This document shows, piece after piece, positions 7,707 to 32,981 of a DNA stretch of 64,000 nucleotides (positions are counted from its first letter, which is position 1; every line of letters begins with the position of its first letter). The DNA lies in assembly GCA_022072085.1 (NCBI GenBank), contig JAJVII010000043.1, positions 446 to 64,445 on the forward strand. The letters run 5' to 3'. The DNA comes from Phycisphaerae bacterium. Its GTDB lineage: Bacteria > Planctomycetota > Phycisphaerae > JAJVII01. The notes below the pieces were generated by a model. It saw nothing but the letters and a program-made list of their open reading frames with translations. It was not told the origin of the DNA and did no database searches. A program made the translations under genes and the position numbers.

Positions 7707-9056
7707 TTGGCTTCGGTCATCGTCATGAGTCCGACGCAACGAGAGATGCTGGCCAACCCGCTGCTGGTGCAATTGCGCTGGTTCATTTCGCTGCGCTGGG
7801 TGGCCGGTCTGGCAGTGGTGGCCGTCGCGCTGCTGGACCGCTTCTGGCTGCACTGGTACCAGGTCGACGGCTCGGTCGTGGACGCCTGGATCGTCGGCGT
7901 CGGGGGCGCGATCCTGGTCTACAACGCCCTGCTGCGGGTCTGGGTCCGACGCCTGATCGCCCACCCGCGGCACCTGATCGTCCTGTCGTGGACGCAGATC
8001 CTTCTCGACCTGGCCTGCCTGACGGTGCTGGTCCTCTGGGCCGGCGGTCCGGTCAGCCCGTTCCTGCTCTTTTTCGTCTTCCACATGGTCTTCACCAGCC
8101 TGCTGCTGCCCCAGCGGATGGCCTACGGCGGCGCCCTGGTCGCGATCATCATGGTCGTCTGCGGGCTGTGGTTGTACGGGACGCTGCCCGGCTCGCGCCA
8201 GAGCTGGCTGATGCTGGCCGGCTGGGGCATCACGCTGCTGCTGACGGTCTACCTGGCCAACCACATCACGCGGAGCATCCAGCGGCAGTGGCGTCGCCTG
8301 GCCCGGCAGAACAGCCGCATCCGCCGCATGTCCCGCCGCCTGCGGCTCCAGCAGCAGGCAATGATCCAGGGCGAGAAGATGGCCGCCCTGGGCCAGATGG
8401 CCGCCGGCGTCGCCCATGAAATCTCCAACCCCCTGGCCGGCATGGACAGCCTGCTCCAGCTCATCCAGCGACACCCCGAGCGGCAGAGCCCCGACCAGGT
8501 CTCCAAGCTCCGCGAGCAGATCGAGCGGATCAAGACGATCATCCGCCAGATGCACACCTTCAGCCACCCCTCGCAGACCGAGGGCCGCACCGTCGTCGCC
8601 GACGAACTGATCGACGACGCCCTGCGGATGCTTCAGTTCGACCGGCGGCTCAAGCGGGTCGAGGTCCGCCGCGAGCCGGCCCAGCCGCCCTGCCGCATCC
8701 ATGTCCAGCCCGAGGCCGTCCACCAGGTGCTGGTCAACCTGGTCATCAACGCCCTGGACGCAATGGAGGACCGCCAGACGCGGATCCTCACCGTCCGCAC
8801 CCGCCGCGACGGACGCTGGTGTCTGATCGACATCATCGACACCGGACACGGCATCCCCGACTCGCAGCGCAACCGGCTGTTCGAGCCCTTCTTCACCACC
8901 AAGCCGGTCGGCAAGGGCACCGGACTGGGCCTTGCCATCAGCTACGGACTGGTCAGCAAGCAGGGCGGGCGGATCGAAGTCCAGAGCCAGCCCGAGACCG
9001 GCACCACCTTCACCGTCTACCTTCCCGTCGCCGACGCAGCCGCGTCAGCCAAGTGA
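7707..9056 (+). CDS. Sensor histidine kinase (polytopic membrane N-terminus, HisKA, HATPase_c)
   Basis: About 6 TM helices, H-box VAHEISNPLAGM, N-box LVNLVINALDA, G1 DTGHGIP and G2 GKGTGLGL. Confidence 0.8.
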   Translation: MASVIVMSPTQREMLANPLLVQLRWFISLRWVAGLAVVAVALLDRFWLHWYQVDGSVVDAWIVGVGGAILVYNALLRVWVRRLIAHPRHLIVLSWTQILLDLACLTVLVLWAGGPVSPFLLFFVFHMVFTSLLLPQRMAYGGALVAIIMVVCGLWLYGTLPGSRQSWLMLAGWGITLLLTVYLANHITRSIQRQWRRLARQNSRIRRMSRRLRLQQQAMIQGEKMAALGQMAAGVAHEISNPLAGMDSLLQLIQRHPERQSPDQVSKLREQIERIKTIIRQMHTFSHPSQTEGRTVVADELIDDALRMLQFDRRLKRVEVRREPAQPPCRIHVQPEAVHQVLVNLVINALDAMEDRQTRILTVRTRRDGRWCLIDIIDTGHGIPDSQRNRLFEPFFTTKPVGKGTGLGLAISYGLVSKQGGRIEVQSQPETGTTFTVYLPVADAAASAK

Positions 9057-9135: not shown

Positions 9136-9546
9136 TCAATGGCGATCTCGGTGGTTTCGGCCGTCGTCGCGGTCGCGGCGACCGTTGTCGCGGCGGTCGT
9201 TGTCGCGGCGGCCGTTGTCGCGGCGGTCGTTGTCGCGGCGGCCGTTGTCGCGGCGGTCGAAGTCCCTGCGATCATTGTTGCCGCGCAGGATCACGGCCGA
9301 TCCGGGGCGATTCACGATCACCGGGGCCGGCCGGGTGACGATCACCGGCGCCGGCCGCGTCACCACCACCGGCCGCGGCGCAACCACCACCGGCGCCGGG
9401 GCGAAGCAGGCCGTGCTGTCGTAGTAACCGCGCCCGTAGTCGTTGTGATGGCGATAGTGCGAGCCGAAGGAGAGGTCGGCGTCCAGGCAGCCCGCCAGCA
9501 GGCCGACCGGTGCGAGCATCGTTGCCAACAGGAGGGTCCGGAACAT
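9136..9546 (-). CDS. Small lipoprotein with C-terminal RRDNGRRDND tandem repeats (unknown function)
   Basis: Start MFRTLLLATMLAPVGLLAGC gives a lipobox (L-A-G-C) with GAGGTG 5 nt upstream. The C-terminus is built from ~4 copies of a 30-bp tandem repeat. The ORF-track start at 9648 is an extension. Confidence 0.45.
   Translation of the reverse strand: MFRTLLLATMLAPVGLLAGCLDADLSFGSHYRHHNDYGRGYYDSTACFAPAPVVVAPRPVVVTRPAPVIVTRPAPVIVNRPGSAVILRGNNDRRDFDRRDNGRRDNDRRDNGRRDNDRRDNGRRDRDDGRNHRDRH
9150..9270. repeat. 30-bp tandem repeat (~4 copies; GTCGCGGCGGYCGTTGTCGCGGCGGYCGTT) inside the lipoprotein CDS
   Basis: Visible periodicity in the sequence. On the minus strand it encodes an RRDNGRRDND low-complexity repeat. 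Confidence 0.6.
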
Positions 9547-9699
9547 GGGGCACCTCATCGGGTTAGGCGGCGATCCGAAGCCGGCCTTTCCCGGCCTGGG
9601 CGTCGGACTCTTTGGTTCTCTCCGCACATGCAGGTAGACCCGGGCCACCTGATATGCGTTAGTTAATATTTTCAGATAGTCAACTATGTCTTGGCGTGT

Positions 9700-9830
9700 G
9701 CTTTGTGCACAGGCGGGGGTCAGGGGTCGGGCAATAGGGAGCTGTGGTCGGGGGTCGGAAGGCAGGTTCGCGTCTGTGCTCTTTCTGACCCCTGATCCCC
9801 GACCCCCAACCCTTTACCAGACCGCCGAGA
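9700..9830. repeat. Word-repeat inverted repeat (GGGGTCAGGGGTCGGG ... CTGACCCCTGATCCCCGACCCC)
   Basis: Imperfect reverse-complement arms built from GGGGTC/CTGAC words, in the spacer upstream of the first cytochrome operon. Confidence 0.45.
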
Positions 9831-9911
9831 CCGGGACCGGCAGCCCACCTGGATAAGCCCCTTCAGGGCAGCCTGCGCTTCCTGATTATAGGAGCAGGGC
9901 TATTTCCAGGA

Positions 9912-9927
9912 TTCTTGATTATGGGAA
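9912..9927. promoter_or_regulatory. Candidate enhancer (UAS) half-palindrome TTCTTG-ATTA-TGGGAA; a second degenerate copy TTCCTG-ATTA-TAGGAG lies at 9879-9894
   Basis: Same N4-spaced architecture and TGGGAA half-site as the perfect palindromes at 15719 and 26471. It lies 50-100 bp upstream of the sigma-54 promoter at 9977. Confidence 0.4.
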
Positions 9928-9976
9928 CCGCATACATGCCAACCCGTTTTTCAGTAGCGCCAAGTGGATCCGGCAG

Positions 9977-9992
9977 TGGTACGCGGTTTGCT
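9977..9992 (+). promoter_or_regulatory. Sigma-54 (RpoN) -24/-12 promoter TGGTAC-GCGGT-TTGCT
   Basis: GG and GC are separated by the canonical 10 nt. The 16-mer TGGTACGCGGTTTGCT is identical to the one at 26623. It sits 33 bp upstream of the multiheme cytochrome start at 10025. Confidence 0.7.
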
Positions 9993-10024
9993 CTAAAGGA
10001 CACCAAGTCTATTGGGATTGATAT

Positions 10025-11491
10025 ATGGATACCGCGCGCCAACGAAAGTTGGGGCGTGCAGGACTGCTGGTCGCGGTCGGCGGGTTGTGTGTCGCCTGGT
10101 CGGTGGGGCTGGGCGCTTCGCCAACAACGGCGCCGGACGCGGCCAGGAAGCCGGACACCAAGACAGCCACTTGCACCAATCAGACCTGTCACGCCACCCT
10201 GATCTCCCGGAAGGTCACGCACGGGCCGACGGCGCAGAACAAGTGCGACGCCTGCCATGTCTATGACGAACCGCGAGAGCACACGTTCAAACTCTCAGCC
10301 CCGGCCGACAAGCTTTGTGATAATTGTCACACCCTCAAGCAACGTACCGTCGTGCACACCCCGGTGAAGATGGCTCAGTGCACCGGCTGCCACGACCCGC
10401 ACGGCTCGGACAATCGCACGCTGCTCAAGGCCGACCCCACGCGCGGGCTCTGCGAAAGCTGCCACAAGAAGGATGCGTTCATGAACCGCAAGTTCCTGCA
10501 CGGACCGGTGGCAGCCGGCGCGTGCATCCTCTGCCACGAGCCGCATTCCTCGTGGGAGCCCAAGCTGCTGATCAAGCCCAAGGACCAGCTCTGCGTGACC
10601 TGTCACGCCGACGTCGTCAAGAAGGCCGAGGCCGCGCGCTTCGTCCACGAGCCGGTCAAGAAGGACTGCGGCCAGTGCCACGACCCCCACAGCGGCGACG
10701 CGAAGTATCAGCTCAAGGAGGCGCCGCCCAAGCTCTGCCTGGGTTGCCACGCGGATGTCCGCAAGCAACTGACCGACGCCAAGGTGATTCACGGACAGGC
10801 CCCGCCGCAGAAGAACGAGGACGGCATGCCCAAGGTCGACGCCGCCGCCCACCGGGCCCAGGAGGAGGCCTTTGGCTGCCTGGGCTGCCACAGCGCCCAC
10901 GTTTCGACGCTGCCCAAACTCCAGAAAGCCGCCCAGCCGGACCTCTGCCTCTCCTGCCACAACCAGACGCTGATCGCCGCCGACGGCAGCAAGCTGACCA
11001 ACATGGCGGCCCTGCTCAAGGACAACCCCGAGCACCACGGACCCATCCGCGAAGGAAGCTGCACCGCCTGTCACCAGCCGCACGGCGCGGGGACCTTCCG
11101 ACTGCTCTCGCACGAATATCCGCAGCAGTTCTACGCCCCGTTCAAGCTGGAGAGCTACGCCCTCTGCTTCGACTGCCACATCCCCCAACTCGTGCTCGCG
11201 GAGAAGGGAACCGGGCTGACGCGGTTCCGCAACGGCGACATCAACCTGCACTGGCTGCACGTGAACCGCGAGAAGGGCCGCACCTGCCGGGCCTGCCACG
11301 AGGTCCACGCCTCCAAGCGCCCCTTCCACATCCGCGACGCAGTGCCCTTCGGCGACAGCGGCTGGATGCTGGAGATTCGCTTCGAGCAGACCACGACCGG
11401 CGGCAGTTGCGCGCCGGGCTGCCACCAGAAGCGGACGTATGACCGCGGCCAGGAGAACCTGGGTCCCCCCAAGCCGGGAGGTCTGAAATGA
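10025..11491 (+). CDS. Periplasmic multiheme c-type cytochrome (13 CXXCH plus CX3CH/CX4CH variants), doubled-CXXCH (HGP…C..CH) repeat family
   Basis: Signal peptide, then repeated …HGP(V/T)…C..CH units (CDACH, CDNCH, CTGCH, CESCH, CILCH, CVTCH, CGQCH, CLGCH x2, CLSCH, CTACH, CFDCH, CRACH, plus CAPGCH). It is a paralogue of the gene at 17361. ORFs 10295..11425(-) and 10324..11442(+) are frame artefacts. Confidence 0.85.
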   Translation: MDTARQRKLGRAGLLVAVGGLCVAWSVGLGASPTTAPDAARKPDTKTATCTNQTCHATLISRKVTHGPTAQNKCDACHVYDEPREHTFKLSAPADKLCDNCHTLKQRTVVHTPVKMAQCTGCHDPHGSDNRTLLKADPTRGLCESCHKKDAFMNRKFLHGPVAAGACILCHEPHSSWEPKLLIKPKDQLCVTCHADVVKKAEAARFVHEPVKKDCGQCHDPHSGDAKYQLKEAPPKLCLGCHADVRKQLTDAKVIHGQAPPQKNEDGMPKVDAAAHRAQEEAFGCLGCHSAHVSTLPKLQKAAQPDLCLSCHNQTLIAADGSKLTNMAALLKDNPEHHGPIREGSCTACHQPHGAGTFRLLSHEYPQQFYAPFKLESYALCFDCHIPQLVLAEKGTGLTRFRNGDINLHWLHVNREKGRTCRACHEVHASKRPFHIRDAVPFGDSGWMLEIRFEQTTTGGSCAPGCHQKRTYDRGQENLGPPKPGGLK

Positions 11492-12531
11492 GCGCCCACA
11501 GGGTCACCATCCGCCGGCCGCCCGTTGCCGCCTGGGCGACGCTGGCCGCCCTGCTCTGGCTGGCGCTGCCCGCGACGCCGGCCGGCGCGGTCACGCACCT
11601 CAAGCGCGGCGACGCCGCCGATCCCGTCGCCTTGTCCGACCTGGACGGCAAGCAGGTCAGCACCGCCGACCTCAAGGGCCGCACGCTGATCCTGGTCTTC
11701 GGCGAACTGTATCACCCCCGCACGCGCGACCTGTGCACGCAGATCGCAACGATCCTCAAGGACGGGAGGCTGGCCGACCAGAAGATCGCGTCCATCCTCA
11801 TCGTCGCCCAGGACGCCAAGCCCGACGAGCTGAAGGCCGAGATGGGCGACATCCACTGGCCGGCGATCATCCTGCACGACGCCGGCCGAAAGGCCTTTGG
11901 CGATTACCGCGTCGCGGTGCTGCCCAGCCTGGTCGTCGTCGACCCCGAGGGCAAGGTGGTGCACGCGATGGCCGGGCCGGTCGACCGGTTGGCCGACGTG
12001 CTGACCGACGCCCTGCTGCTGTCGGCGGGCAAGCTGAGCGCGGAGCGGTTCGAGCAGACGCTGCACCCCCAGCCGACGACGGCCCCCAGCGAGGAGTCCG
12101 AGCGATCGGAGCGGTTCACGCAACTGGCCCGCCAACTCGCCCGACGCGGTATGGACGACCTGGCGGCCGAGAAGTATGCCGAGGCCCTGAGCCTCGACCC
12201 CGGCCACGAGTCGGCGCACCTGGGCCTGGGCCTGCTGCTGCTGCGGCAGCGTCGGCTGGCGCAGGCCGAGGAACGCTTCCGCCTCGTGCTGTTGAGCGAC
12301 CCGCAGTCGCAGGAGGCGGTGCTGGGGCTGGCCTACGTGCAGACGCTGCGCGGGGGCGCGGAGCTGGCGGCGGCGGAGAAGTCCGTCCGCGACCTGCTGG
12401 CCAAGAGCCCGTCGCAGCCGCGGGCGCATTACCTGCTGGGGCTGATATGCGAGCAGCGCCACCAGACCGACAAGGCGGCTGCCAGTTTCAAGCGGGCAGC
12501 CGAGCTGCTGCTGGAGCGGAGCGAAGAGTGA
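11488..12531 (+). CDS. Secreted thioredoxin-fold (TlpA/AhpC-like) domain protein with C-terminal TPR repeats; lacks a CXXC active site
   Basis: Signal peptide, a thioredoxin-like core (GRTLILVFGELYHP…VLPSLVVVDPEGKVV) with a single Cys instead of CXXC, then TPR-like helices (AEKYAEALSLDPGHESAHLGLGLLL…). Translationally coupled to the upstream cytochrome with a 4-nt overlap. Confidence 0.6.
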   Translation: MSAHRVTIRRPPVAAWATLAALLWLALPATPAGAVTHLKRGDAADPVALSDLDGKQVSTADLKGRTLILVFGELYHPRTRDLCTQIATILKDGRLADQKIASILIVAQDAKPDELKAEMGDIHWPAIILHDAGRKAFGDYRVAVLPSLVVVDPEGKVVHAMAGPVDRLADVLTDALLLSAGKLSAERFEQTLHPQPTTAPSEESERSERFTQLARQLARRGMDDLAAEKYAEALSLDPGHESAHLGLGLLLLRQRRLAQAEERFRLVLLSDPQSQEAVLGLAYVQTLRGGAELAAAEKSVRDLLAKSPSQPRAHYLLGLICEQRHQTDKAAASFKRAAELLLERSEE

Positions 12532-12980
12532 TGAGCGAAACCACGCACGACCCTGCGCCCACGCACGACCGCGATGGACGGCGGACCTTCTGCAAGCTGT
12601 GCATCGGCGGGCTTTCGGTGGCGTCGGCGGCGACGGTGGCCTACCCGGTGGCATCGTTCCTGGGCATGCCGATCACCGTCGGGGCCAACAAGCCCGTAGC
12701 GGTCCCGCTGAGCAGCCTGGCCCCGGGGCAGGCTCACTACGCGGAGTTCCAGGGCCAGCAGATCGTCATCCTGTCGGACGAGGAAGGCCAGCGGGTGTTC
12801 AGCGCGTCCTGTCCGCACCTGGGTTGCAACGTGATGTGGAGCCCGGCTGACGCCCTGTTCCACTGTCCGTGCCACGGGGCGGTGTTCAACTCGCACGGGC
12901 AGGTGGTCAGCGGGCCGGTCAGCGCGTCGCTGAAGAAGGTCCCCTTCGAGGTCAAGAACGGGGTCATCATCGTTTCCTGA
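12531..12980 (+). CDS. Rieske [2Fe-2S] protein of a cytochrome bc-type complex
   Basis: Box I CPHLGC and box II CPCHGA are 19 residues apart, with an N-terminal TM/TAT-like segment. TGATG overlap with the previous gene. The ORF-track entry 11733..12980 is a spurious N-terminal extension in the same frame. Confidence 0.85.
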   Translation: MSETTHDPAPTHDRDGRRTFCKLCIGGLSVASAATVAYPVASFLGMPITVGANKPVAVPLSSLAPGQAHYAEFQGQQIVILSDEEGQRVFSASCPHLGCNVMWSPADALFHCPCHGAVFNSHGQVVSGPVSASLKKVPFEVKNGVIIVS

Positions 12981-12989
12981 GGTGCCTCC

Positions 12990-13649
12990 ATGCGTCTGCT
13001 GGGACGGATATTCGACTGGTTCGACGAGCGGTATGAGCTGACGCCGCTGATCGAGAAGAACGTCACCCACAAGCAGGTGCCGCGGACGCTGGGCTGGAGC
13101 GCCTGCTTCGGCGGGCTGGCCTTCCTCACCTTCCTGGTCCAGGTCTTCACCGGGATGCTCCTGCTGATGTACTACAAGCCGCACCCGTCGGCCGCCTGGG
13201 ACAGCGTGACCTTCATCAAGAGCAACGTGCCGATGGGCTGGCTGGTGCAGCGGATCCACACCGTGGGCGCCAACACGATGATCGTGCTGGTGTTCATGCA
13301 CTTCGCCCGGGTGGCCTACTACAAGATCTTCCGCAAGCCGCGCGAACTGCACTGGATCAGCGGCGTGGTGCTGATGCTCATTACGACGATCATGGCCTTT
13401 ACCGGCTACCTGCTGCCCTGGACGCAACTGAGCTACTGGGGCGCCAAGGTCGGCACCGAAATCCCCGGCGCCGTCCCGTGGATCGGCGAAGGCATCCGCA
13501 ACTGGGTCCGGCGCGGGCCGGCCATCAGCGGCGAAACCCTCGGCTTCTTCTTCTCGCTGCACATCTGGATCCTGCCGGCGGTCGCGGTGGCCTTCATGCT
13601 CATGCACTTCATGATGATCCGGAGGACGGGCATCTCGCGGCCGCTGTGA
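12990..13649 (+). CDS. Cytochrome b, N-terminal half (cytochrome b6-like, 4 TM, bis-His heme ligands)
   Basis: 219 aa with four TM helices, conserved His in helices B and D (…RIHTVGANTMIVLVFMHF…, …FFFSLHIWILPAVAVAFMLMHF…) and a PetB-like length. Confidence 0.85.
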   Translation: MRLLGRIFDWFDERYELTPLIEKNVTHKQVPRTLGWSACFGGLAFLTFLVQVFTGMLLLMYYKPHPSAAWDSVTFIKSNVPMGWLVQRIHTVGANTMIVLVFMHFARVAYYKIFRKPRELHWISGVVLMLITTIMAFTGYLLPWTQLSYWGAKVGTEIPGAVPWIGEGIRNWVRRGPAISGETLGFFFSLHIWILPAVAVAFMLMHFMMIRRTGISRPL

Positions 13650-13848
13650 ACGCGCATAAGAGAACGCAGGGGGGCAGAGAAGGACAGAGGGCGCAGGGAC
13701 GGAATGAACGAAGCGAAGGAAGAGCGAAAGGGACACGGAGAACACGCGGCGGGCAGAAGGAAGATGAGAATCAGGATTTCTCTGCCCGACCTCTGCCTCT
13801 CCGCCCCTCTGCGTTCCTCTTGAACTCGCCCCCAGCCGGGGCGAACGG

Positions 13849-14499
13849 ATGGAGCAGGCCATGGGCGCCGATTACAAGAAGCAATACCGGCCCGACCAGT
13901 TGGAGCCCTTCTGGCCCAACGAGATCATCAAGATGGTCGTCGTCGTGCTCTGCACGCTGGCGGTCATCATGTTCTTTGCCGTCCTGCCGGTGCTGCTGGA
14001 CATGATCGGCGTGCACGGGGCGATGCACGGCGAGGAGCCGGCCAACCCGCAGGGCGCCACGCCCGCCGGCATCAAACCCGAGTGGTACTTCCTGGCCGTC
14101 TACCAGTATCTCCGCCTGATGCCCACCGAACTGTTCGGGATCAGCGGCAAGACGCTGGGCGTGCTCAGCCAGGGGGTGGGCATCGCGGCGGTCGTGCTGC
14201 TGCCGTTCTGGTATCGCCGACGGGCTAGCCGGCGCCCGGGCTGGGTCTATCGGCTGATTGTCACCGCCGGCCTGGTGGGGTTCCTGGTACTGACGATCTG
14301 GGGCGGCTGGCCCGAGACGCAGGGCCCCGACGGCGGCGAGGAACTGATTCCCTTCAAGGACTACCTCCACCAGAAGCCGACCATGTTCATCCTGTTCGGC
14401 GTGGCCCTGGTCGTCTTCTACTTCCTGATCTGGCGCGAGCGGCGGATGATCCGCCAGGTGCTCGACGCCCCCGATCCCGGGGAAGGAGCCGCGCCGTGA
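13849..14499 (+). CDS. Cytochrome b C-terminal half / subunit IV-like (PetD-like, PEWY motif)
   Basis: Three TM helices and a PEWYFL motif (…AGIKPEWYFLAVYQYLR…). An alternative start at 13861 has a GGAG 6 nt upstream. Confidence 0.75.
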   Translation: MEQAMGADYKKQYRPDQLEPFWPNEIIKMVVVVLCTLAVIMFFAVLPVLLDMIGVHGAMHGEEPANPQGATPAGIKPEWYFLAVYQYLRLMPTELFGISGKTLGVLSQGVGIAAVVLLPFWYRRRASRRPGWVYRLIVTAGLVGFLVLTIWGGWPETQGPDGGEELIPFKDYLHQKPTMFILFGVALVVFYFLIWRERRMIRQVLDAPDPGEGAAP

Positions 14500-15431
14500 A
14501 GACTTCGATGATCCGAATGGCTGCGGTCCTGCTGGCCACCGCGCTGGCCGCCCGGACGCCCGCCCTGCGCGCCGCCGACGACGATCCGTTCGCGAACAAC
14601 GCCTGCGTGAACTGCCACCGCGACCTGCCCGGGCGCAGCAGCGAGATCGTCACCCTCGAGTGGAAACAGAGCGTTCACCACGCCGCCGGGGTCGGCTGCG
14701 ACGGCTGCCACGGCGGCGACCCCTCGGTCCGCCGCGACCAGTTCGCCATCGAGGACGACTACAAGCGGGCGGCCCACCTTCAGCGCAATCCTGACTTCCT
14801 GCTGATGCAGGACCGCACCGACCCCTTCGTCGGTCCGGTCCGAGGACGCAAGGTTTCGTACTTCTGCGGCAAGTGCCACGCCGACATCAAGGAGAAGCAT
14901 CTGGGCAGCCCGCACGGCGACTTCGGCGACCCGACCTGTCTCTACTGCCACGGGCAGGGCTCGCACAAGATCACCCACCCGACAGCCGAGGAGATCATCG
15001 ACACGCGGCCCAAGTCCGAGAACGGACGGTGCAGCCCCTGCCACCGGGCCGCAACCATGCAGGCGGTCACTACTATCAAGAAGACGCTGATCGACGCCGA
15101 GGACAGGATCCAGACCTCCGGCAATCTCTACGCGCGACTGGAGAGCTGGGGCTACCAGAACCTGGAGTTGGAGAAGCTGCACCATCACGCCCGGGAGGTC
15201 CGCTCGCAACTGCGGCAGATCTTCCACAGTTTCAACATGAGGGACATTAACAATTTCGCCTCGGAGATCGGCGACGTGGCCGATCGCACGCAGGCGACCT
15301 ATGACCTGGTCAGCAACCTGCGCCGCACCCAGCGTCGCCAGACGGTCGTCGGAGCGTCCGCCGTCGGCATGCTGCTGCTGTTTGCCGGCCTGCTGGTTTA
15401 CTACAAGCGATCGTTCCTGGATGAGCATTAG
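14496..15431 (+). CDS. Pentaheme c-type cytochrome with C-terminal membrane anchor (bc-complex-associated)
   Basis: Signal peptide, then CVNCH, CDGCH, CGKCH, CLYCH and CSPCH, with a C-terminal TM helix (VVGASAVGMLLLFAGLLVYY). ATGA overlap with the preceding gene. Confidence 0.8.
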   Translation: MKTSMIRMAAVLLATALAARTPALRAADDDPFANNACVNCHRDLPGRSSEIVTLEWKQSVHHAAGVGCDGCHGGDPSVRRDQFAIEDDYKRAAHLQRNPDFLLMQDRTDPFVGPVRGRKVSYFCGKCHADIKEKHLGSPHGDFGDPTCLYCHGQGSHKITHPTAEEIIDTRPKSENGRCSPCHRAATMQAVTTIKKTLIDAEDRIQTSGNLYARLESWGYQNLELEKLHHHAREVRSQLRQIFHSFNMRDINNFASEIGDVADRTQATYDLVSNLRRTQRRQTVVGASAVGMLLLFAGLLVYYKRSFLDEH

Positions 15432-15718
15432 GCACTGTCTGACGAATCGATCGTCGGCCTGAGAGCGAGCGAATTCGCGGCCGGCAAGGCGGCCGAAGCA
15501 GGCGTTACTCTTTCGTATCGCCGATGCAGGCCAACGCCGCCGGACGCGAATGCAGCCGCTCGGAGCCAGAGCGATTCGTCAGACAGAGCCTGGGCGAAGG
15601 TCGGCCCCGCCCTGTTTCTCCCAGCGCCACACTGCCCGCAAGGTTGCATCGCGACGCCGCGACCTTTGTGAAAAGTCGCGCGAACGTCTTGTGGCCGGGA
15701 CGACGGCGAGCGAGGAAA

Positions 15719-15734
15719 TTCCCACTTATGGGAA
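15719..15734. promoter_or_regulatory. Perfect 16-bp palindrome TTCCCA-CTTA-TGGGAA; candidate enhancer-binding-protein site (UAS)
   Basis: Exact reverse-complement half-sites with a 4-nt spacer, 50 bp upstream of the -24 element at 15785. Confidence 0.5.
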
Positions 15735-15784
15735 CCGGATGGCATAAGTTCCATCACAATGTGGCCTTACGGGGGTTGACTCGC

Positions 15785-15799
15785 GGCACGCCGTTTGCT
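15785..15799 (+). promoter_or_regulatory. Sigma-54 -24/-12 promoter GGCACG-CCGT-TTGCT
   Basis: Matches the consensus (T)GGCACG-N4-TTGCW with correct GG/GC spacing. Lies ~40 bp upstream of the NapC-like cytochrome start. Confidence 0.7.
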
Positions 15800-15837
15800 T
15801 ACCTGATGGATGATCGACGGGTGTGAAGGAGGTTTCG

Positions 15838-17364
15838 GTGCGCAAGTTGTTCAGATGGTTCTGGGCCAAGCGCCTTCGCCGCTGGGGGCTGATCGCCGGC
15901 GTGGGGCTCGTCCTCCTGTCGGTCGGCACGGTAGAGCTGACCAGCCAGAGCTGGTTCTGCAATTCCTGCCACATCATGAACACCTACTACGCCAGTTGGA
16001 AGACTTCGCCGCACAAGGACGTGGAGTGCATCCGCTGCCACATCGCGCCGGGGATGAACAACTTCGTCTCGGCCAAGCTCAACGGGCTGGGCCAGGTCGT
16101 CGATGACGTCCTGCACCGCACGAGCACCAAGCCCTCGGCGTCGGTGAGCGACATGAGCTGCACCCGCGCCGGCTGCCACGAGCAGGCGGTCGTCCAGGCC
16201 AATGACTACACCGCCGTGACAGCCGCCGCCATGTCGGCGACACAGACCCCGCCACGTGCCTACTTCTTCGACCACAGCAAGCACCTGGGGCGCGAGTATC
16301 GGGGCATCAGCATCCACTGCTCGACCTGCCACTCGCACGTCCAGGGCGACCAGCACTTCGAGGTGAACACCAACGTCTGCGTCACCTGCCACCTGTTCAG
16401 CGGGCCGGGCACGGCGCCCCAGTGGTCGGCCCCGGTGCTGTCGGTCACGACGACCCGGCCCGACGCCGCCCCCAGCAGCCAGGCCGAGCAGATCACCGGC
16501 TCGACGGTCGCCTCCCCCGACCAGGCCGTCGCCGCCCCGTCGCGCTGCAAGAACTGCCACGAGCCGCCCAAGCAACCGGTGAACTACCACGGGCTTCAGG
16601 TCATCCACGACGAGTATCTGGCCTACGGAGCGGCCTGCGAAAGCTGCCATCGCAACGTGACGGCCGCGTTCGCCACGATCGGCGACACCCAGTGCTACGC
16701 CTGTCACGACTTCGGCGCCGAGCGGATCGGCGACATCGAGGACCTCCACCGCGTCCACACCGTCGGCGAGCACAAGGTCGAGTGCTTCAGTTGCCACGGG
16801 CTGACGGCCCACGGGCCCAAGGCGGCCGCCTCGGCGCTCCAGCTCGAGCAGCTCACCTGCGGCGCCTGCCACAAGGGCCAGCACCAGATCCAGCAGACGA
16901 CTTACAAGCCCGGCGTCGAGCCGACGCCGACCCAGCCCGAGCAGGGCCACGCCCAACCCGAGCAGTCGGTCGCGGTCTCGCCGATGTTCATGGCCCACGT
17001 CGACTGCACCGGATGCCACGTCAGGCAGCAGCCGCTGGAATTCAAGCCCGACACCGGCGCGACTGTCGCGATGGCCGCGCCGCAGGCCTGCGACGCCTGC
17101 CACAAGCCCGGACTGGGCGCGTCGCAGATCGCCCTGTGGCAGAAGGCCACCAAGGCGCTCTACGAGCAGGCGGCCGCCCTGCTGCCGGCAACGCCGCCGG
17201 CGCCGGGCAGCGAGTCGGCCCGGCTGGTCGCCGAGGCCCGCAAGCTGCTGGACCTCGTGCGGCTGGACGGCTCGTGGGGCGTTCACAATCCGAAGTACAC
17301 CGAGAGCCTGCTGCTGGAGGCGATCGCCAAGCTCCGGCAGGCGTCGGCGGGAGGTGGTTCATGA
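15838..17364 (+). CDS. NapC/NirT/NrfH-family membrane-anchored multiheme cytochrome c, extended (11 CXXCH + 1 CX4CH); putative quinol dehydrogenase
   Basis: N-terminal TM helix immediately followed by CNSCH…CIRCH, the NapC/NrfH hallmark, then 9 more heme motifs. GTG start at 15838 is preceded by AAGGAGG at -6; the ORF-track start 15823 is 5 codons upstream. Confidence 0.8.
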   Translation: MRKLFRWFWAKRLRRWGLIAGVGLVLLSVGTVELTSQSWFCNSCHIMNTYYASWKTSPHKDVECIRCHIAPGMNNFVSAKLNGLGQVVDDVLHRTSTKPSASVSDMSCTRAGCHEQAVVQANDYTAVTAAAMSATQTPPRAYFFDHSKHLGREYRGISIHCSTCHSHVQGDQHFEVNTNVCVTCHLFSGPGTAPQWSAPVLSVTTTRPDAAPSSQAEQITGSTVASPDQAVAAPSRCKNCHEPPKQPVNYHGLQVIHDEYLAYGAACESCHRNVTAAFATIGDTQCYACHDFGAERIGDIEDLHRVHTVGEHKVECFSCHGLTAHGPKAAASALQLEQLTCGACHKGQHQIQQTTYKPGVEPTPTQPEQGHAQPEQSVAVSPMFMAHVDCTGCHVRQQPLEFKPDTGATVAMAAPQACDACHKPGLGASQIALWQKATKALYEQAAALLPATPPAPGSESARLVAEARKLLDLVRLDGSWGVHNPKYTESLLLEAIAKLRQASAGGGS

Positions 17365-18857
17365 GCCGCCTGCCTCGCCGAAACGGCGCCAGGCGTCGCG
17401 TCGTCAGCCCGCTGCCGGCGGCGCTGGTGCTGGTCGGCCTGGGGTTGATGGCCTTGTCGATCCGGATCGGCCGGGCCGACGACGCTGCCGCCAAGAAGGC
17501 CCCGACGACGCGGACCGTCAACTGCACCGAGGGCGGCTGCCACGCCAAGGAGATCGACTACAAGGTGCTGCACGGGCCGACCTCCATCGGCGCCTGCGAC
17601 ACCTGCCACGAGTACACCGACGTCGCGACGCACAAGTTCAAGCTCAAGCGCGAACCGACCAAGCTGTGCACCTTCTGCCACGTCGGGCAGGAAGCCGGCA
17701 AGTTGATCCACAAGCCGGTGTCTGAGGGCCAGTGCCTGGGCTGCCACAACCCGCACGGGTCGAGCAACCGCCAGATGCTCCGCAGCGACAACGCCGGCCA
17801 GCTCTGCGCGACCTGCCACGGCGACGTCACGCAGGCCCGCAAGCAGGTCCACGGGCCGGTCGCCGCCGGCAACTGCGTCACCTGCCACAACGCCCACAGT
17901 TCCAACCACCCGCACCTGCTGGTGGCCGAGGGACGCGGCCTCTGCCTGGGCTGCCACAAGGAGATGGATCAGCAGCTCAAGGAGGTGAAGTATCTCCACG
18001 AGCCGGTCAAGGGCGACTGCCTCCAGTGCCACGAGCCCCACGCCTCCAACCAGAAGATGCATCTCCGCAAGGACCCGCTGGACCTGTGCAGCTCCTGCCA
18101 CGCCAATGTGAAGGACCAGGCCCTCAAGAGCACGCACAAGCACACCCCGGTGACCACCGGCGACGCCTGCATCAGTTGCCACACGCCCCACGGCAGCGAC
18201 ACGGCCAAGCTGATGAAGGCGCCCGCCGCCAAGGTCTGCCTCGCCTGCCACGACAAGCCGATCAAGGAAGACAACCTGACCGTCGCCTCGGTCGCCGAGA
18301 TCGCCAAGCCCGGCGAGTTCCTCCACGGGCCCATCCGCGACGGCAACTGCTCCGGCTGCCACAACGTCCACGGCAGCAACGAGAGTCGGCTGCTGGCGGC
18401 GCCCTACACATCCAACTTCTACGCCCCGTTCAGCGTCGAGGATTACGAGCTCTGCTTCACCTGCCACAGCAAGCAGATGGTGACCACCGCGCAGACCCAG
18501 GGGCTGACCAACTTCCGCGACGGGACGGCCAACCTGCACTACGTCCACGTCAACCGCGAAAAGGGGCGCACCTGCCGGGCCTGCCACAGCACCCACGCCT
18601 CCGACCACCCGCTGCACATCCGCGACAGCGTGCCGTTCGGCAACTGGGAGCTGCCGATCCACTTCACCCCGACCGCCAACGGCGGCAAGTGCCAGAGCGG
18701 CTGCCACAAGCCGCTGGAATACAACCGCCTCGGGGCCGTGACGATCAAGCCGCCCGGCGCCCCGGCCACCCAGCCCGACGCCCCGCCGCCCGGCCCGTCC
18801 GCGACCCCTGCGCCCGCAACGACGACCGCACCCGACACCCCGGATGCCAAGCCATGA
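17361..18857 (+). CDS. Periplasmic multiheme c-type cytochrome (13 CXXCH + variants), paralogue of 10025..11491
   Basis: Same doubled-CXXCH repeat architecture, ending …CRACHSTHASDHPLHIRDSVPFG…C..GCH as the paralogue. ATGA overlap with the upstream gene. ORF-track 16422..18857 is an N-terminal extension. Confidence 0.85.
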   Translation: MSRLPRRNGARRRVVSPLPAALVLVGLGLMALSIRIGRADDAAAKKAPTTRTVNCTEGGCHAKEIDYKVLHGPTSIGACDTCHEYTDVATHKFKLKREPTKLCTFCHVGQEAGKLIHKPVSEGQCLGCHNPHGSSNRQMLRSDNAGQLCATCHGDVTQARKQVHGPVAAGNCVTCHNAHSSNHPHLLVAEGRGLCLGCHKEMDQQLKEVKYLHEPVKGDCLQCHEPHASNQKMHLRKDPLDLCSSCHANVKDQALKSTHKHTPVTTGDACISCHTPHGSDTAKLMKAPAAKVCLACHDKPIKEDNLTVASVAEIAKPGEFLHGPIRDGNCSGCHNVHGSNESRLLAAPYTSNFYAPFSVEDYELCFTCHSKQMVTTAQTQGLTNFRDGTANLHYVHVNREKGRTCRACHSTHASDHPLHIRDSVPFGNWELPIHFTPTANGGKCQSGCHKPLEYNRLGAVTIKPPGAPATQPDAPPPGPSATPAPATTTAPDTPDAKP

Positions 18858-19915
18858 ACTCGAAGGAGTCTGCCATGATCTCGCATCCCGTTCGACTCCG
18901 CCTCACGCCGACGCTCGCCCTGGCGTTGCTGGCCGGGCTGAGCTTCTGGCCCACCGGCGCCGTCGGCGACGATCAGCCCACCACCGCCGCCGACGACGCT
19001 CAGTGGTCAGCCAAGGACCTCGACGGCAACGCCGTCCAACTGGGCGACCCGGCCAAGCCGACCGTGCTGCTGTTCCTCATGTCGGGCCAGCCGCAGAGCG
19101 CCGACGCCCTCAAACGCGTCACCGCGTCAGTCAAGGCCCACCCCGGCGTGGACGCCGTCGCCATCGTCAGCGCCGACAAGGCCGCCGACTACGCCGCCAA
19201 GATCAAGGCCGACTGGCCCGGAAAGGTCGCCCTGGACGCCGACTACGCGCTGGCCGGTCGGTGCAACGTGCACGTCTGGCCGACCACGGTCATCCGCGTG
19301 CCCGGCGGAAAGCAACTCGCCCACATGGGCGGACTGCCCGCGTCGCTGGACAACCAGGTGGGGGCCTGGCTGGACTTCGCGACCGGCGCGATCGACGAGG
19401 CCGCGCTCAAGCGTCGGCTCAGCGGGCAGGAGGTCGTCGAGGACAACCCCGCGCAGATGGCGGCGCGGCACCTGGCGGCTGCCGACCGGCTGCTGGACAA
19501 GGGGCTGGTCGCCCAGGCGCGCGACGAGTTGGAGCGCGGGCTGAAGATCAGGCCCGCCGACAGCGCCCTCCAGCTTGCGATGGCCCGCGTGCTGCTGCTG
19601 ATGGACCAGCCGGCCGACGCGATGGCCCTGCTGGACCGGATCGACGCCTCCTCCGTCCCGCCGTGGAAGCTGGACGTGGTGCGAGGCCGGGCCCTGATGG
19701 CGATGGAGAAATGGGACCAGGCCTCGGCGGTGCTGGTCCGGGCGGTGAAGCTGAACCCCGAGCCGTCGGAGGCCTACTACGCGCTGGGCCAAATCTACGA
19801 ACACGCCCTGGACTACCGCCAGGCGGCGACGGCCTACAGGGCGGCGTTCGAGAACAGCCCCACGGGGAGGAAGCTGACGATTTCCCCGATTCCGACGACG
19901 CAGCCGGGGGAGTGA
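18854..19915 (+). CDS. Secreted thioredoxin-fold + TPR protein, paralogue of 11488..12531 (no Cys in the Trx-like core)
   Basis: ATGA overlap with the cytochrome. Same domain order as the paralogue (Trx-like core PTVLLFLMSG…VWPTTVIRVPGGKQ, then TPR helices). ORF-track 17732..19915 is an extension. Confidence 0.6.
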   Translation: MNSKESAMISHPVRLRLTPTLALALLAGLSFWPTGAVGDDQPTTAADDAQWSAKDLDGNAVQLGDPAKPTVLLFLMSGQPQSADALKRVTASVKAHPGVDAVAIVSADKAADYAAKIKADWPGKVALDADYALAGRCNVHVWPTTVIRVPGGKQLAHMGGLPASLDNQVGAWLDFATGAIDEAALKRRLSGQEVVEDNPAQMAARHLAAADRLLDKGLVAQARDELERGLKIRPADSALQLAMARVLLLMDQPADAMALLDRIDASSVPPWKLDVVRGRALMAMEKWDQASAVLVRAVKLNPEPSEAYYALGQIYEHALDYRQAATAYRAAFENSPTGRKLTISPIPTTQPGE

Positions 19916-23238: not shown

Positions 23239-23239
23239 G

Positions 23240-30132: not shown

Positions 30133-30173
30133 ACTACACTACTTGCAGAGGGCGGCTGACAGGGAGCCTTGCG

Positions 30174-32962: not shown

Positions 32963-32981
32963 CGACGGAAGGAAGCGACCC

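Follow-up and report, generated by a model that had tools for sequence, protein, structure and literature searches.

Our analysis suggests that the 64,000-nt stretch of Phycisphaerae DNA analysed here (the window) probably encodes two parallel, separate inner-membrane menaquinol:multiheme cytochrome c oxidoreductases, which would feed an extracellular electron-transfer conduit from one sigma-54-controlled island. The observation reported in an earlier note on this DNA was confirmed as a whole: the genes that it described lie on the forward strand at their positions (Table 1). The boundaries of its units are revised below.

Table 1. Features of the cytochrome region and its regulators, with window positions.
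Feature	Position	Strand	Basis or remark
NtrC-type sigma-54 enhancer-binding response regulator	3438–5132	+	Response_reg + Sigma54_activat (E=1e-66) + HTH_8
PhnD-like periplasmic binding protein (sensor set)	5219–6235	+	Pfam
HAMP/HisKA protein (sensor set)	6365–7390	+	Pfam
Histidine kinase (sensor set)	7707–9056	+	Pfam
Sigma-54-type site TGGTACGCGGTTTGCT	9977–9992	+	1 mismatch; 33 nt upstream of first operon
MtrA-like periplasmic multiheme cytochrome	10025–11491	+	Heme motifs, Pfam; first gene of Rieske/b operon
Thioredoxin-fold (AhpC/Redoxin-like) + TPR protein	11488–12531	+	Pfam
Rieske [2Fe-2S] subunit, 149 aa	12531–12980	+	PF00355 (E=3.7e-13), motifs
Cytochrome b6-like, 4-helix, 219 aa	12990–13649	+	PF00033 (E=2e-53)
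Long imperfect hairpin	13657–13820	+	Folding; in the 200 nt separating cytochrome b from subunit IV
Subunit IV-like protein, 216 aa	13849–14499	+	PF00032 (E=2.9e-13), structure alignments, TM scan
Pentaheme cytochrome c, 311 aa	14496–15431	+	Heme motifs, TM scan
Long hairpin	15432–15587	+	Folding; directly 3' of pentaheme stop codon
Sigma-54-type site CGGCACGCCGTTTGCT	15784–15799	+	1 mismatch; before 12-heme gene
TM-anchored NrfH/NapC-type cytochrome, 12 heme sites	15823–17364	+	PF03264, heme motifs
Second MtrA-like cytochrome, 15 sites	17361–18857	+	Translationally coupled to 12-heme gene
Second TPR protein	18854–19915	+	Translationally coupled; operon of 12-heme gene
10-heme putative lipoprotein	20045–21223	+	Putative outer-membrane conduit
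672-aa signal-peptide protein, last residue Phe	21220–23238	+	Putative outer-membrane conduit
NHL beta-propeller	23240–24310	+	Putative outer-membrane conduit
MtrC-domain cytochrome	24231–25985	+	Putative outer-membrane conduit

Organization and control of the operons

The Rieske/b genes, listed from 12531 in the earlier note, do not form a unit of their own. Their operon begins at 10025, behind its own sigma-54-type site, and runs to 15431 through six genes, whose products are in order the MtrA-like cytochrome, the TPR protein, the Rieske protein, the b6-like protein, subunit IV and the pentaheme cytochrome; the Rieske/b genes are translationally coupled to the two upstream genes. The MtrA-like cytochrome, found upstream of Rieske/b in about 30 genomes, carries 13 CxxCH, one CxxxCH and one CxxxxCH motif, and it matches Paired_CXXCH_1 (E=1e-59) and the solved structure 6r2q chain A (6e-18). 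The TPR gene is syntenic in relatives, its start overlapping the preceding stop and its stop the Rieske start, and its product lacks a CxxC motif.

Stop/start overlaps occur inside this operon and inside the one headed by the 12-heme gene. The two are separated by a 391-nt gap containing a long hairpin, a probable operon boundary: the fold of 15432–15822 had a z of -3.6, with 15432–15587 paired. The hairpin between cytochrome b and subunit IV (MFE -90.1 kcal/mol, z = -5.2) was equalled in stability by none of 200 shuffles, and neither the rest of the window nor the loci compared showed a further copy. A Ccm system I cluster for cytochrome maturation lies downstream (30006–37763).

Scoring against the consensus TGGCAC-N5-TTGCW gave six sigma-54-type sites in the window versus 1.9 expected, a number reached in 0 of 100 shuffles, and the sites at 9977, 15784, 26623 and 30117 precede operon starts. 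Those at 9977 and 15784 contain a single mismatch, which at 15784 changes the first T of the consensus to C. No sigma-70-like promoter was found in 9500–17500. Similar sites precede NapC-like genes in L007 and L010, conservation among relatives being patchy. The NtrC-type regulator probably starts in reality 3' of the sigma-54 site at 3530–3545. The same regulator set flanks the cytochrome cluster in relatives, and the order of the sensor set beside the cytochrome genes is kept in L001, L004, L006 and L072. The predicted site, together with a sigma-54 activator and kinases that adjoin the cluster here and in relatives, supports the earlier proposal that the 12-heme gene has its own sigma-54 promoter.

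The Rieske/b-pentaheme module

The Rieske protein has an RR signal/anchor and the cluster boxes CPHLGC and CPCHGAVF, and the form CPCHGA[VIMA]F is kept in all 28 Phycisphaerae-type loci in which a Rieske gene was recovered. In yeast, Ser-to-Ala and Tyr-to-Phe changes at box positions drop the Em by about 130 and 65 mV, and low-potential quinones accompany low-potential Rieske proteins (PMC12954380). The CPCHGAVF box predicts a low-potential Rieske cluster.

The top solved-structure matches of the cytochrome b6-like protein were b6 chains (1e-54). It contains the His pairs H90/H104 and H191/H206, and C39, within the heme cn motif CFGG, aligns with Cys35 of b6. The window cytochrome b shares 41% identity with phototroph b6, and the two fell into separate clades in a neighbour-joining tree without bootstrap; it therefore does not group with phototroph b6, whereas grouping with ordinary phototroph b6f was among the outcomes that the earlier note had set against its own idea. 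For the subunit IV-like protein four TM helices are predicted, against three in PetD, and its start may be M5 (13861), judging from homologue N-termini. Its Qo motif is KPEWYFL, so that PEWY (residue 77), which the earlier note had proposed to check for a variant, is canonical. Both CxGG and PEWY are kept throughout the Phycisphaerae-type clade, and from these residues and the Rieske box the complex looks functional and of the menaquinol type.

The pentaheme protein contains exactly five CxxCH motifs, a signal-like N-terminal segment and a single C-terminal TM helix (283–301), and its start codon overlaps the subunit IV stop. All five motifs and six further His residues are invariant in 20 homologues. 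The MHC-TPR-Rieske-b-IV-pentaheme order is shared by about 30 Planctomycetota species genomes, including that of the cultured Fontivita pretiosa B-254, at 36–70% pentaheme identity, and subunit IV and the pentaheme form one polypeptide in four separate protein clusters (P0056, P0059, P0062 and P0107). In Nitrospinota, Nitrospirae, Desulfuromonadaceae and others, Rieske-b-IV is followed by a five-CxxCH homologue of 24–31% identity. Because of the synteny and the fusions, we infer that the pentaheme is a genuine c-type subunit of the Rieske/b complex, standing in place of cytochrome c1/f as first proposed.

The 12-heme protein

The 12-heme protein combines 11 CxxCH motifs and one CTRAGCH (CxxxxCH) with a TM helix at its N-terminus, and it scored 43 bits against PF03264 (cut-off 24.1). 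Its start is more likely the GTG at 15838, behind the Shine-Dalgarno sequence GAAGGAGG, than 15823, in agreement with a 508-aa database protein of 100% identity (P0121). The N-terminus aligns with NrfH (2j7a_C), CxxCHxM included, which bears out the NapC/NrfH-type identity originally assigned. Across 24 homologues there is no variation at any of the 12 heme sites, at CxxCHIM, at M52 or at K85, and the protein is probably an NrfH-type quinol entry point.

Proposed electron route and its direction

In module 1 (12531–15431), a b6-type Rieske/b complex, quinol would be oxidized at the canonical PEWY Qo site. One electron would pass through the predicted low-potential Rieske cluster to the membrane-anchored pentaheme, at the cytochrome c1/f position, and the other would return to quinone by way of hemes bL and bH, probably with a covalently bound heme cn as a further step. 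This path is a Q cycle, so energy would be conserved. Module 2 (15838–17364) would be an NrfH-type quinol dehydrogenase with its tetraheme core extended to 12 predicted hemes, and no Q cycle would be involved. The co-encoded MtrA-like 15-site periplasmic cytochromes would receive electrons from both modules and pass them on to the decaheme lipoprotein, the large outer-membrane protein, the NHL propeller and the MtrC-like cytochrome; the presumed endpoint is extracellular, or at minimum outer-membrane, electron transfer. The 672-aa outer-membrane candidate showed no detectable similarity to MtrB or to any Pfam or PDB entry, and the conduit set of 20045–25985 recurs in L072 and L074, and also in L031 and L034. 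Geobacter uses ImcH, CbcL and CbcBA under different conditions, and separate sigma-54 promoters may similarly select a high-yield or a low-yield branch by condition. The earlier description "branched or bifurcating" is thus plausible in its first half, while bifurcation beyond the ordinary Qo split of a Q cycle is without support.

A low-potential acceptor chain would leave the Q cycle little driving force, so the direction of electron flow is uncertain. Alternatively, an external donor such as Fe(II), reduced humics, a cathode or a partner cell might feed electrons in through the conduit, to reach quinone via the NrfH-type protein, a Rieske/b complex running in reverse, or both. In principle, a porin-cytochrome conduit and a Rieske/b complex can each work either way, and reverse operation has been proposed for the petI bc1 complex in iron-oxidising acidophiles. 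The sequence fixes no direction, and several membrane entry points suit uptake as much as export. We nevertheless consider uptake unlikely: no carbon-fixation or obvious lithotrophy context was found within the window, a PFOR gene is located upstream, uphill transport would gain no special advantage from a low-potential Rieske cluster, and Phycisphaerae are characterised in a published survey of genomes as degraders of complex carbon (PMC11266412).

Separable modules

The earlier note had placed the 12-heme protein within one "bc-type complex". Its gene is instead the first of a second operon that extends to the outer-membrane conduit, and its distribution shows the protein to be a separable module. 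Orthologues occur after the same regulators without Rieske/b genes in L072–L074; in L072 the orthologue heads a full MHC-TPR-decaheme-OMP-NHL-MHC operon. In L001 and L072 it is followed by an MtrA-like cytochrome and a TPR gene, as in the window; L073 and L074 also have the MtrA-like cytochrome after it, but the following gene is on the opposite strand. Conversely, no NrfH-type protein was seen at 23 Planctomycetota Rieske/b loci, 16 of which cover about 10 kb on each side. Rieske/b modules lie beside an OMP/NHL/MHC set on the opposite strand in L031 and L034; most Planctomycetota Rieske/b-pentaheme loci have neither an NrfH-type protein nor an OMP set within 10 kb, so the module need not be tied to an outer-membrane conduit.

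In four phyla, nevertheless, Rieske/b-pentaheme modules repeatedly have an NrfH-type 11–13-heme protein encoded no more than 10 kb away. In its strongest form, the earlier idea would have the two modules joined in one physical supercomplex that works by a special mechanism, either coupled or bifurcating. In its favor, the two are repeatedly encoded near each other, namely in Planctomycetota, Nitrospirae, Nitrospinota and one Pseudomonadota genome, and the Nitrospirae NrfH-type gene lies directly 3' of the pentaheme gene. However, many genomes hold either module without the other, no fusion joining both was seen, and in the window the hairpin, the gap and a separate predicted promoter divide them. 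The Rieske/b-paired proteins of other phyla are also shorter (about 300 aa), with 23% identity in one gapped 360-column alignment that is clearest at the NrfH-like N-terminus. Such an assembly is, in our judgement, improbable.

A reductase role for the 12-heme protein seems more doubtful still. It would then be a quinol-linked periplasmic reductase of a soluble nitrogen or sulfur oxyanion, NrfH joined to an NrfA/MccA/ONR-like catalytic domain, and Rieske/b would support the metabolism of nitrogen oxides, for which Nitrospina and anammox bacteria offer parallels. Residues 459–507, with an MccA/NrfA-like helix (DGSWGVHNP), align with the C-terminal helix of the sulfite reductase MccA (motif DGSWGVHNPKYT), a YgbA_NO family gene adjoins the regulators in L001 and L002, and a divergent Phycisphaerales paralogue has its multiheme subunit fused to a GltD-like NAD(P) oxidoreductase, reminiscent of anammox complexes. 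In contrast, the MccA match is limited to one helix, the protein lacks CxxCK and has no significant match to catalytic NrfA, MccA or HAO families, neither an NAD(P) oxidoreductase nor an HAO-like gene is present in the window cluster, and orthologues always precede MtrA-like cytochromes, often with the OMP/NHL/MHC set as well. Chance adjacency of two unrelated respiratory operons, which would suit the separability of the modules and their varying adjacency in close relatives, is the least credible reading given the shared regulators, the same sigma-54 motif type before both operons, the paralogous MtrA-like and TPR gene pairs in both and the recurrence across four phyla.

Comparison with known systems

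The two parallel oxidoreductases that we favor had been likened to both anammox and Geobacter complexes. The first resemblance is limited: the Rieske box, with Ala/Phe rather than Ser/Tyr and a predicted low potential, and the lack of an NAD(P) oxidoreductase indicate that the window complex is not of the anammox type, and an HAO-like octaheme is also absent. The second is apt, since Geobacter Cbc6/ExtMNOPQS is made of the same kind of parts as the window cluster (PMC5877670, PMC2825233). The Geobacter Cbc6 cluster, itself still uncharacterised, is comparable with the branched electron export route proposed here.

Gene organization and transcription units

The window (G+C about 68%) carries a single long island of plus-strand genes, delineated by ORF listing, third-position G+C and domain searches and listed in the table. 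The Ccm system I cluster lies immediately 3' of the cytochrome island. Upstream of the island is a pyruvate:ferredoxin/flavodoxin oxidoreductase-type gene, consistent with an anaerobic or facultative lifestyle. In two fetched loci of related genomes, L001 (1561-1926) and L002 (3627-4037), a gene of the YgbA_NO (“nitrous oxide-stimulated promoter”) family adjoins the regulators; its positional counterpart in the window, ORF 2789-3262 (-), has no family match. The pentaheme and 12-heme proteins are identical (100%) to database entries P0001 and P0121, both annotated by NCBI as hypothetical protein.

Features of the multiheme island and its surroundings
Feature	Position (nt)	Strand	Remarks
Pyruvate:ferredoxin/flavodoxin oxidoreductase-type gene	788-2674	-	POR, POR_N and PFOR_II domains
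Sigma-54-type site	3287-3302	-	perfect; faces 157-aa ORF without family match
Sigma-54 activator	3438-5132	+	domain search
Sigma-54-type site	3530-3545	+	perfect; divergent partner of 3287-3302 around activator gene
PhnD-like binding protein	5219-6235	+
HAMP/HisKA protein	6365-7390	+
Histidine kinase	7707-9056	+
Sigma-54-type site	9977-9992		precedes first gene of Rieske/b operon
First 15-site MtrA-like cytochrome	10025-11491	+
Thioredoxin-fold/TPR protein	11488-12531	+
Rieske protein	12531-12980	+	PF00355, E=3.7e-13
Cytochrome b, b6-like	12990-13649	+	Pfam Cytochrome_B, E=2e-53
Hairpin	13657-13820		in cytochrome b/subunit IV gap
Subunit IV	13849-14499	+	KPEWYFL; PF00032 domain in fused homologues
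Pentaheme cytochrome	14496-15431	+	five CxxCH
Hairpin	15432-15587		directly 3' of pentaheme stop
Sigma-54-type site	15784-15799		one mismatch
12-heme NrfH-like protein	15823-17364	+	11 CxxCH and one CTRAGCH; likely start 15838
Shine-Dalgarno sequence	15825-15832		5' of GTG 15838
Second 15-site cytochrome	17361-18857	+
Second TPR protein	18854-19915	+
Decaheme putative lipoprotein	20045-21223	+
672-aa signal-peptide protein	21220-23238	+	no family match
NHL propeller	23240-24310	+
MtrC-domain cytochrome	24231-25985	+
Sigma-54-type site	26623-26638	+	precedes two small cytochrome genes
Two small cytochromes and second NHL protein		+	between MtrC-domain cytochrome and Ccm cluster in gene listing
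Ccm system I cluster	30006-37763	+	CcmE, CcmF, two unassigned ORFs, CcmA-like ABC ATPase, CcmB, CcmC
Sigma-54-type site	30117-30132	+	inside listed CcmE ORF, 5' of CcmE domain
Further MtrC-domain cytochrome	37934-39136		follows Ccm cluster

From 10025 to 12990 and again from 14496 on, neighboring genes overlap or abut at their stop and start codons, and a sigma-54-type site precedes the gene of the first MtrA-like cytochrome, indicating that the Rieske/b genes form the distal part of a six-gene operon. The unit that an earlier note on this DNA had taken to begin at 12531 thus starts 2.5 kb upstream. The 12-heme gene overlaps the following gene by 4 nt, and that gene overlaps its successor likewise; therefore, the 12-heme gene opens a second operon. 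It is preceded by the sigma-54-type site CGGCACGCCGTTTGCT, which deviates at one position from TGGCAC-N5-TTGCW; from its end, the listed GTG at 15823 is 24 nt away and the likely start at 15838 is 39 nt away. The Shine-Dalgarno sequence GAAGGAGG supports GTG 15838 as the real start, in agreement with the 508-aa database protein. With one mismatch allowed, the window contains six such sites (1.9 expected), and none of 100 shuffles reached six. A promoter scan of 9500-17500 found no sigma-70-like promoter. We predict that the site before the 12-heme gene is a sigma-54-dependent promoter served by the activator encoded at 3438-5132. The plus-strand member of the divergent pair around the activator gene is probably the activator's own promoter, and the entire 30-kb island may be one sigma-54 regulon.

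Two intergenic hairpins were observed in this region. A long, imperfect hairpin (MFE -90 kcal/mol, z = -5.2) with a purine-rich and a pyrimidine-rich arm fills the 200 nt that separate cytochrome b from subunit IV, a gap of only about 20 nt in relatives such as L002; the hairpin might act in mRNA processing or stability and so set the stoichiometry of the subunits. The second, of 156 nt, lies 5' of the sigma-54-type site in the 391-nt gap after the pentaheme gene; it has no T-run and is therefore not a classical intrinsic terminator. It is single-copy, without a repeat in the window or related loci. A mobile REP-like element was rejected for both hairpins, which showed neither repeats nor sequence conservation in related loci.

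Rieske protein, cytochrome b and subunit IV

The core subunits retain the features that a Q cycle requires, and these are kept across the clade. The Rieske protein has both cluster-binding boxes (CPHLGC at 94, CPCH at 112), including the disulfide cysteines, and RR in its N-terminus. The histidine pairs H90/H104 and H191/H206 of cytochrome b align to H86/H100 and H187/H202 of b6, the ligands of hemes bL and bH, with the b6 spacing of 13 (helix B) and 14 (helix D) residues. Cys39 in the CFGG motif aligns with b6 Cys35, the attachment site of heme cn, of which CxGG is the signature (PMC5600118). The best solved-structure matches are b6 chains (E ~1e-54). Subunit IV has four predicted helices, one more than PetD, and its Qo motif at residue 77 is the canonical KPEWYFL; PEWY is kept in all Planctomycetota homologues, so the Qo-site check proposed in the earlier note returned no variant. 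From these features, the assembled complex is predicted to have Q-cycle quinol:cytochrome c activity.

The quinone type is suggested by the second Rieske box, CPCHGAVF, in which Ala and Phe replace the Ser and Tyr hydrogen-bond donors; CPCHGA[VIMA]F was found in all 28 Phycisphaerae-type loci where the Rieske protein was recovered. The Ser/Tyr donors raise the potential of Rieske proteins of bc1 and of the high-potential anammox proteins (+303 and +335 mV; Ser and also Tyr), mutation of the Ser or Tyr position in the yeast protein cuts Em by about 130 or 65 mV, respectively, and low-potential quinones go with low-potential Rieske proteins (PMC12954380). We therefore infer that the complex is of the menaquinol type and of low potential.

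In a neighbor-joining tree without bootstrap, cytochrome b falls in a tight Planctomycetota clade (67-80% identity), whose sister is a Nitrospirae clade (52-53%), while chloroplast b6 is distant (41%) and in a separate clade. The phylogenetic check put forward in the earlier note thus gave no grouping with phototroph b6. The protein scores nearly equally with the NCBIfam models for b6 (226 bits, cut-off 325) and for cytb_ExtP (NF040969; 219.9 bits, equivalog cut-off 290), below the cut-off in both cases.

The pentaheme cytochrome

The protein encoded after subunit IV has exactly five CxxCH motifs. Its N-terminus is signal-like and one helix lies at the C-terminus, a topology shared with cytochromes c1 and f; the Pfam and NCBIfam profiles gave no cytochrome f match. 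Of the 68 species-representative loci fetched, those of about 30 Planctomycetota genomes retain the order MtrA-like cytochrome-TPR-Rieske-b-IV-pentaheme, including that of the cultured Fontivita pretiosa B-254 (pentaheme identity 70%). Furthermore, subunit IV and the pentaheme occur as single polypeptides of about 530-545 aa with PF00032 first (P0056, P0059, P0062 and P0107). This synteny and these fusions mark the pentaheme as a subunit of the Rieske/b complex; it is neither c1 nor f, as the earlier note had proposed in calling the complex unusual.

A sequence search returned at least 250 homologues, of which those with a named source were all from Phycisphaerae or other Planctomycetota; among 1.84 billion cluster representatives searched with a profile, 608 relatives passed E<=1e-3 and 143 passed E<=1e-10. 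Across 20 homologues, all five heme motifs and six other histidines are invariant. In Nitrospinota, Nitrospirae, Desulfuromonadaceae, ‘Glassbacteria’ and others, the gene after Rieske-b-IV encodes a more distant homologue with five CxxCH (24-31% identity). Distant relatives of about 420-440 aa, considered as further subunit IV fusions, proved to be larger multiheme proteins; true fusions are limited to the ~530-545-aa proteins.

The AlphaFold2 model is poor in the heme-binding regions (mean pLDDT 67.8) and confident in the C-terminal helix alone. In a Foldseek search of the PDB with this model, no hit had an E-value under 1.9, and we therefore make no structural assignment; the family profile had a single marginal match among PDB sequences, to hemes 1-2 of cytochrome c554 (E=0.0065).

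The 12-heme NrfH-type protein

The 12-heme protein has one N-terminal transmembrane helix (22-40) and matches PF03264, the NapC/NirT N-terminal heme domain, at 43.2 bits (cut-off 24.1). It aligns with Desulfovibrio NrfH (2j7a_C) over the transmembrane helix and the first two heme motifs, CxxCHxM included. Across 24 homologues there is no variation in CNSCHIM, in K85 or at any of the 12 heme sites. By its offset of +3 residues, K85 may correspond to Lys82 near the quinol site of NrfH. Scores were far below the cut-offs of the equivalog models (TIGR03153 for NrfH, 42 against 134 bits; TorC models, 24-30 against 455-478 bits). These data and the site in front of the gene agree with the NrfH-type quinol dehydrogenase behind a sigma-54 site that had been described earlier.

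Residues 459-507, about the last 50, align with the C-terminal helix of the sulfite reductase MccA (4rkm); this helix, DGSWGVHNPKYT, is invariant in the family and carries the motif DGSWGVHNP. In the pentaheme, a comparable helix motif, RQxFHSFNM, is likewise invariant. A heme-motif scan found no CxxCK in the 12-heme protein, and the Pfam and NCBIfam profiles gave no significant match to a catalytic multiheme family. Its AlphaFold2 model (mean pLDDT 53.4) is likewise poor in the heme-binding regions and confident in the C-terminal helix alone.

Relationship between the two modules

All genes of 12531-17364 named in the earlier note, and the sigma-54 site, lie where it had placed them; the single bc-type complex that it had built from them resolves into two separable modules in two operons. 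True orthologues of the 12-heme protein (about 50% identity) on three long contigs (L072-L074) stand directly after the same regulators, without Rieske/b genes; in L072, the window order continues exactly behind the orthologue: MtrA-like cytochrome, TPR protein, decaheme, 662-aa protein, NHL protein and cytochrome. In turn, 23 Planctomycetota loci with the Rieske/b-pentaheme module show no NrfH-type cytochrome in the flanking DNA covered (about 10 kb on each side in 16 of the 23). The window's own arrangement was found only in L001/L011. In a group of loci including that of Fontivita (NZ_CP191258.1, 914479-935312), a CbcL-like gene (multiheme plus Ni_hydr_CYTB) stands between the pentaheme gene and an NrfH-type paralogue of 28-30% identity. 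Judged by these neighborhoods, the 12-heme protein does not belong obligatorily to the bc complex.

The CbcL-like protein (about 705-720 aa) combines multiheme c and a Ni_hydr_CYTB-type b, like Geobacter CbcL. It occupies the position between the pentaheme gene and the NrfH-type paralogue in many relatives, and the gene was located in L002 (11720-13888), L073 (19288-21405), L004 and L006-L010. Some genomes thus align three distinct quinol-oxidising modules.

Four phyla have NrfH-type proteins, defined by a transmembrane helix, CxxCHxM as first motif and 11-13 hemes, in the vicinity of Rieske/b-pentaheme modules: Planctomycetota (11 loci, including two pairs of duplicates), Nitrospirae (4 loci, the gene directly after the pentaheme gene), Nitrospinota (3 loci) and Pseudomonadota (one genome). 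The Nitrospirae protein has about 300 aa and 23% identity to the window protein in one gapped alignment, clearest at the NrfH-like N-terminus. What recurs across phyla is a protein type, not a single orthologous family. We read the pairing as a functional partnership in one pathway rather than as one complex.

Outer-membrane conduit candidate

The 15-site cytochromes hit MtrA in the solved Mtr structure (6r2q chain A, 6e-18) and also the DmsE family. Each of their genes is followed by a TPR-protein gene, a pairing kept across relatives; the TPR proteins may have a chaperone or scaffold role. The first TPR protein has an AhpC/Redoxin-like thioredoxin fold without CxxC; no redoxin domain was detected in the second, unlike its counterparts in L002 and L072.

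Downstream, the decaheme putative lipoprotein is followed by the large signal-peptide protein, which ends in Phe, by the NHL beta-propeller, itself a putative lipoprotein, and by the MtrC-domain cytochrome. No similarity of the 672-aa protein to MtrB or to a Pfam or PDB entry was detected. The set of decaheme, ~660-690-aa protein, NHL protein and MtrC-domain cytochrome is conserved in the window (20045-25985), L072 (14201-20132), L074, L031 and L034, and adjoins Rieske/b modules in the latter two. It looks like an undescribed conduit of the porin-cytochrome type.

Proposed function

With moderate confidence, we consider a branched menaquinol-to-multiheme route feeding the outer-membrane conduit to be the most likely function of the island. 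In the first branch, menaquinol would be oxidised in a Q cycle through the Rieske/b complex; in the second, the NrfH-type protein would oxidise it. The branched pathway of the earlier note is kept in this form, while nothing supports the bifurcation beyond a normal Q cycle that it had offered as an alternative.

It is very improbable that the pair instead forms a periplasm-to-quinone-to-periplasm redox loop, or a supercomplex with non-canonical bifurcation. In the loop, a low-potential donor outside the cell or in the periplasm would supply the electrons with which the NrfH-type protein reduces menaquinone, and the Rieske/b complex would re-oxidise the quinol via the Q cycle toward a higher-potential extracellular acceptor; energy would then be conserved purely from the potential difference between two external redox couples. 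The supercomplex would draw on kinship to the NAD(P)-linked anammox complexes through one paralogue. In L034 (10001-12559; Phycisphaerales bin37, CP070744.1), a divergent six-heme relative of the pentaheme carries C-terminal Fer4_20, Pyr_redox_2 and 4Fe-4S domains, that is, a GltD-like NAD(P) oxidoreductase (FeS/FAD domain); the same fusion occurs in P0243. The gene adjoins the outer-membrane protein/NHL/cytochrome set, and the Rieske box of the locus is CPCHEGKF. An NAD(P) oxidoreductase of this kind is the defining feature of the anammox Rieske/b complexes, present in L034 but not in the window, and the fused paralogue is a possible bridge between the two types of complex.

Sediments, soils and bioreactors harbor Phycisphaerae in abundance, and members of the class are mostly portrayed as fermenters or simple respirers. 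A conserved b6-type Rieske/cytochrome b complex that includes a pentaheme subunit is present in many of them; here it is embedded in a large gene island of multiheme and outer-membrane proteins under apparent sigma-54 control. A class-wide genome survey found the bc1 complex in no Phycisphaerales genome (PMC11266412), and the b6-type complex seems to have been overlooked in it. If the island supports extracellular electron transfer, a major uncultured lineage would join the cyclers of iron, manganese and humics, and a second system, phylogenetically far from Geobacter, would become available for studying why electron exporters keep multiple quinol oxidases, the Cbc6-type Rieske/b complex among them. 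The cultured Fontivita pretiosa B-254 carries the Rieske/b module and an NrfH-type paralogue, which makes these questions experimentally testable.

Comparison with known systems

The likeness to Geobacter Cbc complexes suggested earlier is borne out, since the closest described analogue, Cbc6/ExtMNOPQS of G. sulfurreducens (GSU2930-2935), has the same kinds of parts: 12-heme and 10-heme cytochromes, Rieske, cytochrome b, a small membrane protein and a few-heme lipoprotein cytochrome (PMC5877670). Its Rieske protein is small, its split cytochrome b measures about 23 kDa, a small protein takes the position of subunit IV, and the cluster adjoins outer-membrane electron-transfer genes (PMC5877670, PMC2825233). 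The window cluster has this architecture, its cytochromes being compared with ExtM, ExtN and ExtS through the published description (PMC5877670). In contrast to Cbc6, the gene order differs, TPR and thioredoxin-fold genes are interleaved, the host is a planctomycete and regulation is of the sigma-54 type; nothing homologous to ExtH (rhodanese), ExtI (porin) or ExtKL (selenoprotein) was seen. The CxGG motif for heme cn is present in the window and in the sampled Nitrospirae homologues, and absent from the sampled homologues of Desulfuromonadaceae, Nitrospinota and Glassbacteria. A 2026 review continues to give the role of Cbc6 as unknown (PMC13591261).

The anammox likeness holds in part. Kuenenia Kuste4569-4574 and Kustd1480-1485 also belong to Planctomycetota and combine a b6-like cytochrome b and subunit IV with a multiheme c replacing cytochrome f, and they include an NAD(P) oxidoreductase subunit and, in one case, an HAO-like octaheme (PMC12954380, PMC5600118). 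Domain searches found no NAD(P) oxidoreductase domain among the genes of 10025-25985, and we therefore rejected an NAD(P)-linked complex of the anammox type; the Ala/Phe Rieske box is a further difference, and the window likewise has no HAO-like octaheme. Short CxGG-bearing cytochromes b in Planctomycetes, and multihemes in place of c1/f in anammox bacteria, Nitrospina and Deltaproteobacteria, have been described (PMC5600118, PMC3578206, PMC2825233); our literature search found no paper joining Rieske, cytochrome b6, Planctomycetes and multiheme.

With b6f, the complex shares the split cytochrome b and subunit IV, the histidine spacing, the CxGG cysteine and PEWY, but it differs in lacking cytochrome f, in the fourth helix of subunit IV, in the low-potential-type Rieske box and in the non-phototrophic host. 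An ordinary phototroph b6f was rejected on the identity of 41%, the separate clade and the score below the b6 cut-off.

Among the NapC/NrfH-type proteins, the 12-heme protein resembles NrfH, NapC, CymA and ImcH in its N-terminal transmembrane helix and PF03264. Its first heme motif, CxxCHxM, is that of Desulfovibrio NrfH, and the conserved Lys downstream may be a further likeness. It has 12 heme sites against four in NrfH, NapC and CymA, five in TorC and seven in ImcH, and differs from the NrfH family in one CxxxxCH site and the MccA/NrfA-like C-terminal helix. Like Geobacter ImcH, it is an extended member that would open a route of extracellular electron transfer (PMC13591261).

The downstream genes recall MtrCAB in the MtrA-like cytochromes, the decaheme putative lipoprotein before a large signal-peptide protein and the MtrC/MtrF-domain cytochrome further downstream, whereas the 672-aa protein has no MtrB similarity and an NHL beta-propeller belongs to the set. 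In this last respect, the set recalls outer-membrane cytochrome clusters of Desulfovibrio ferrophilus.
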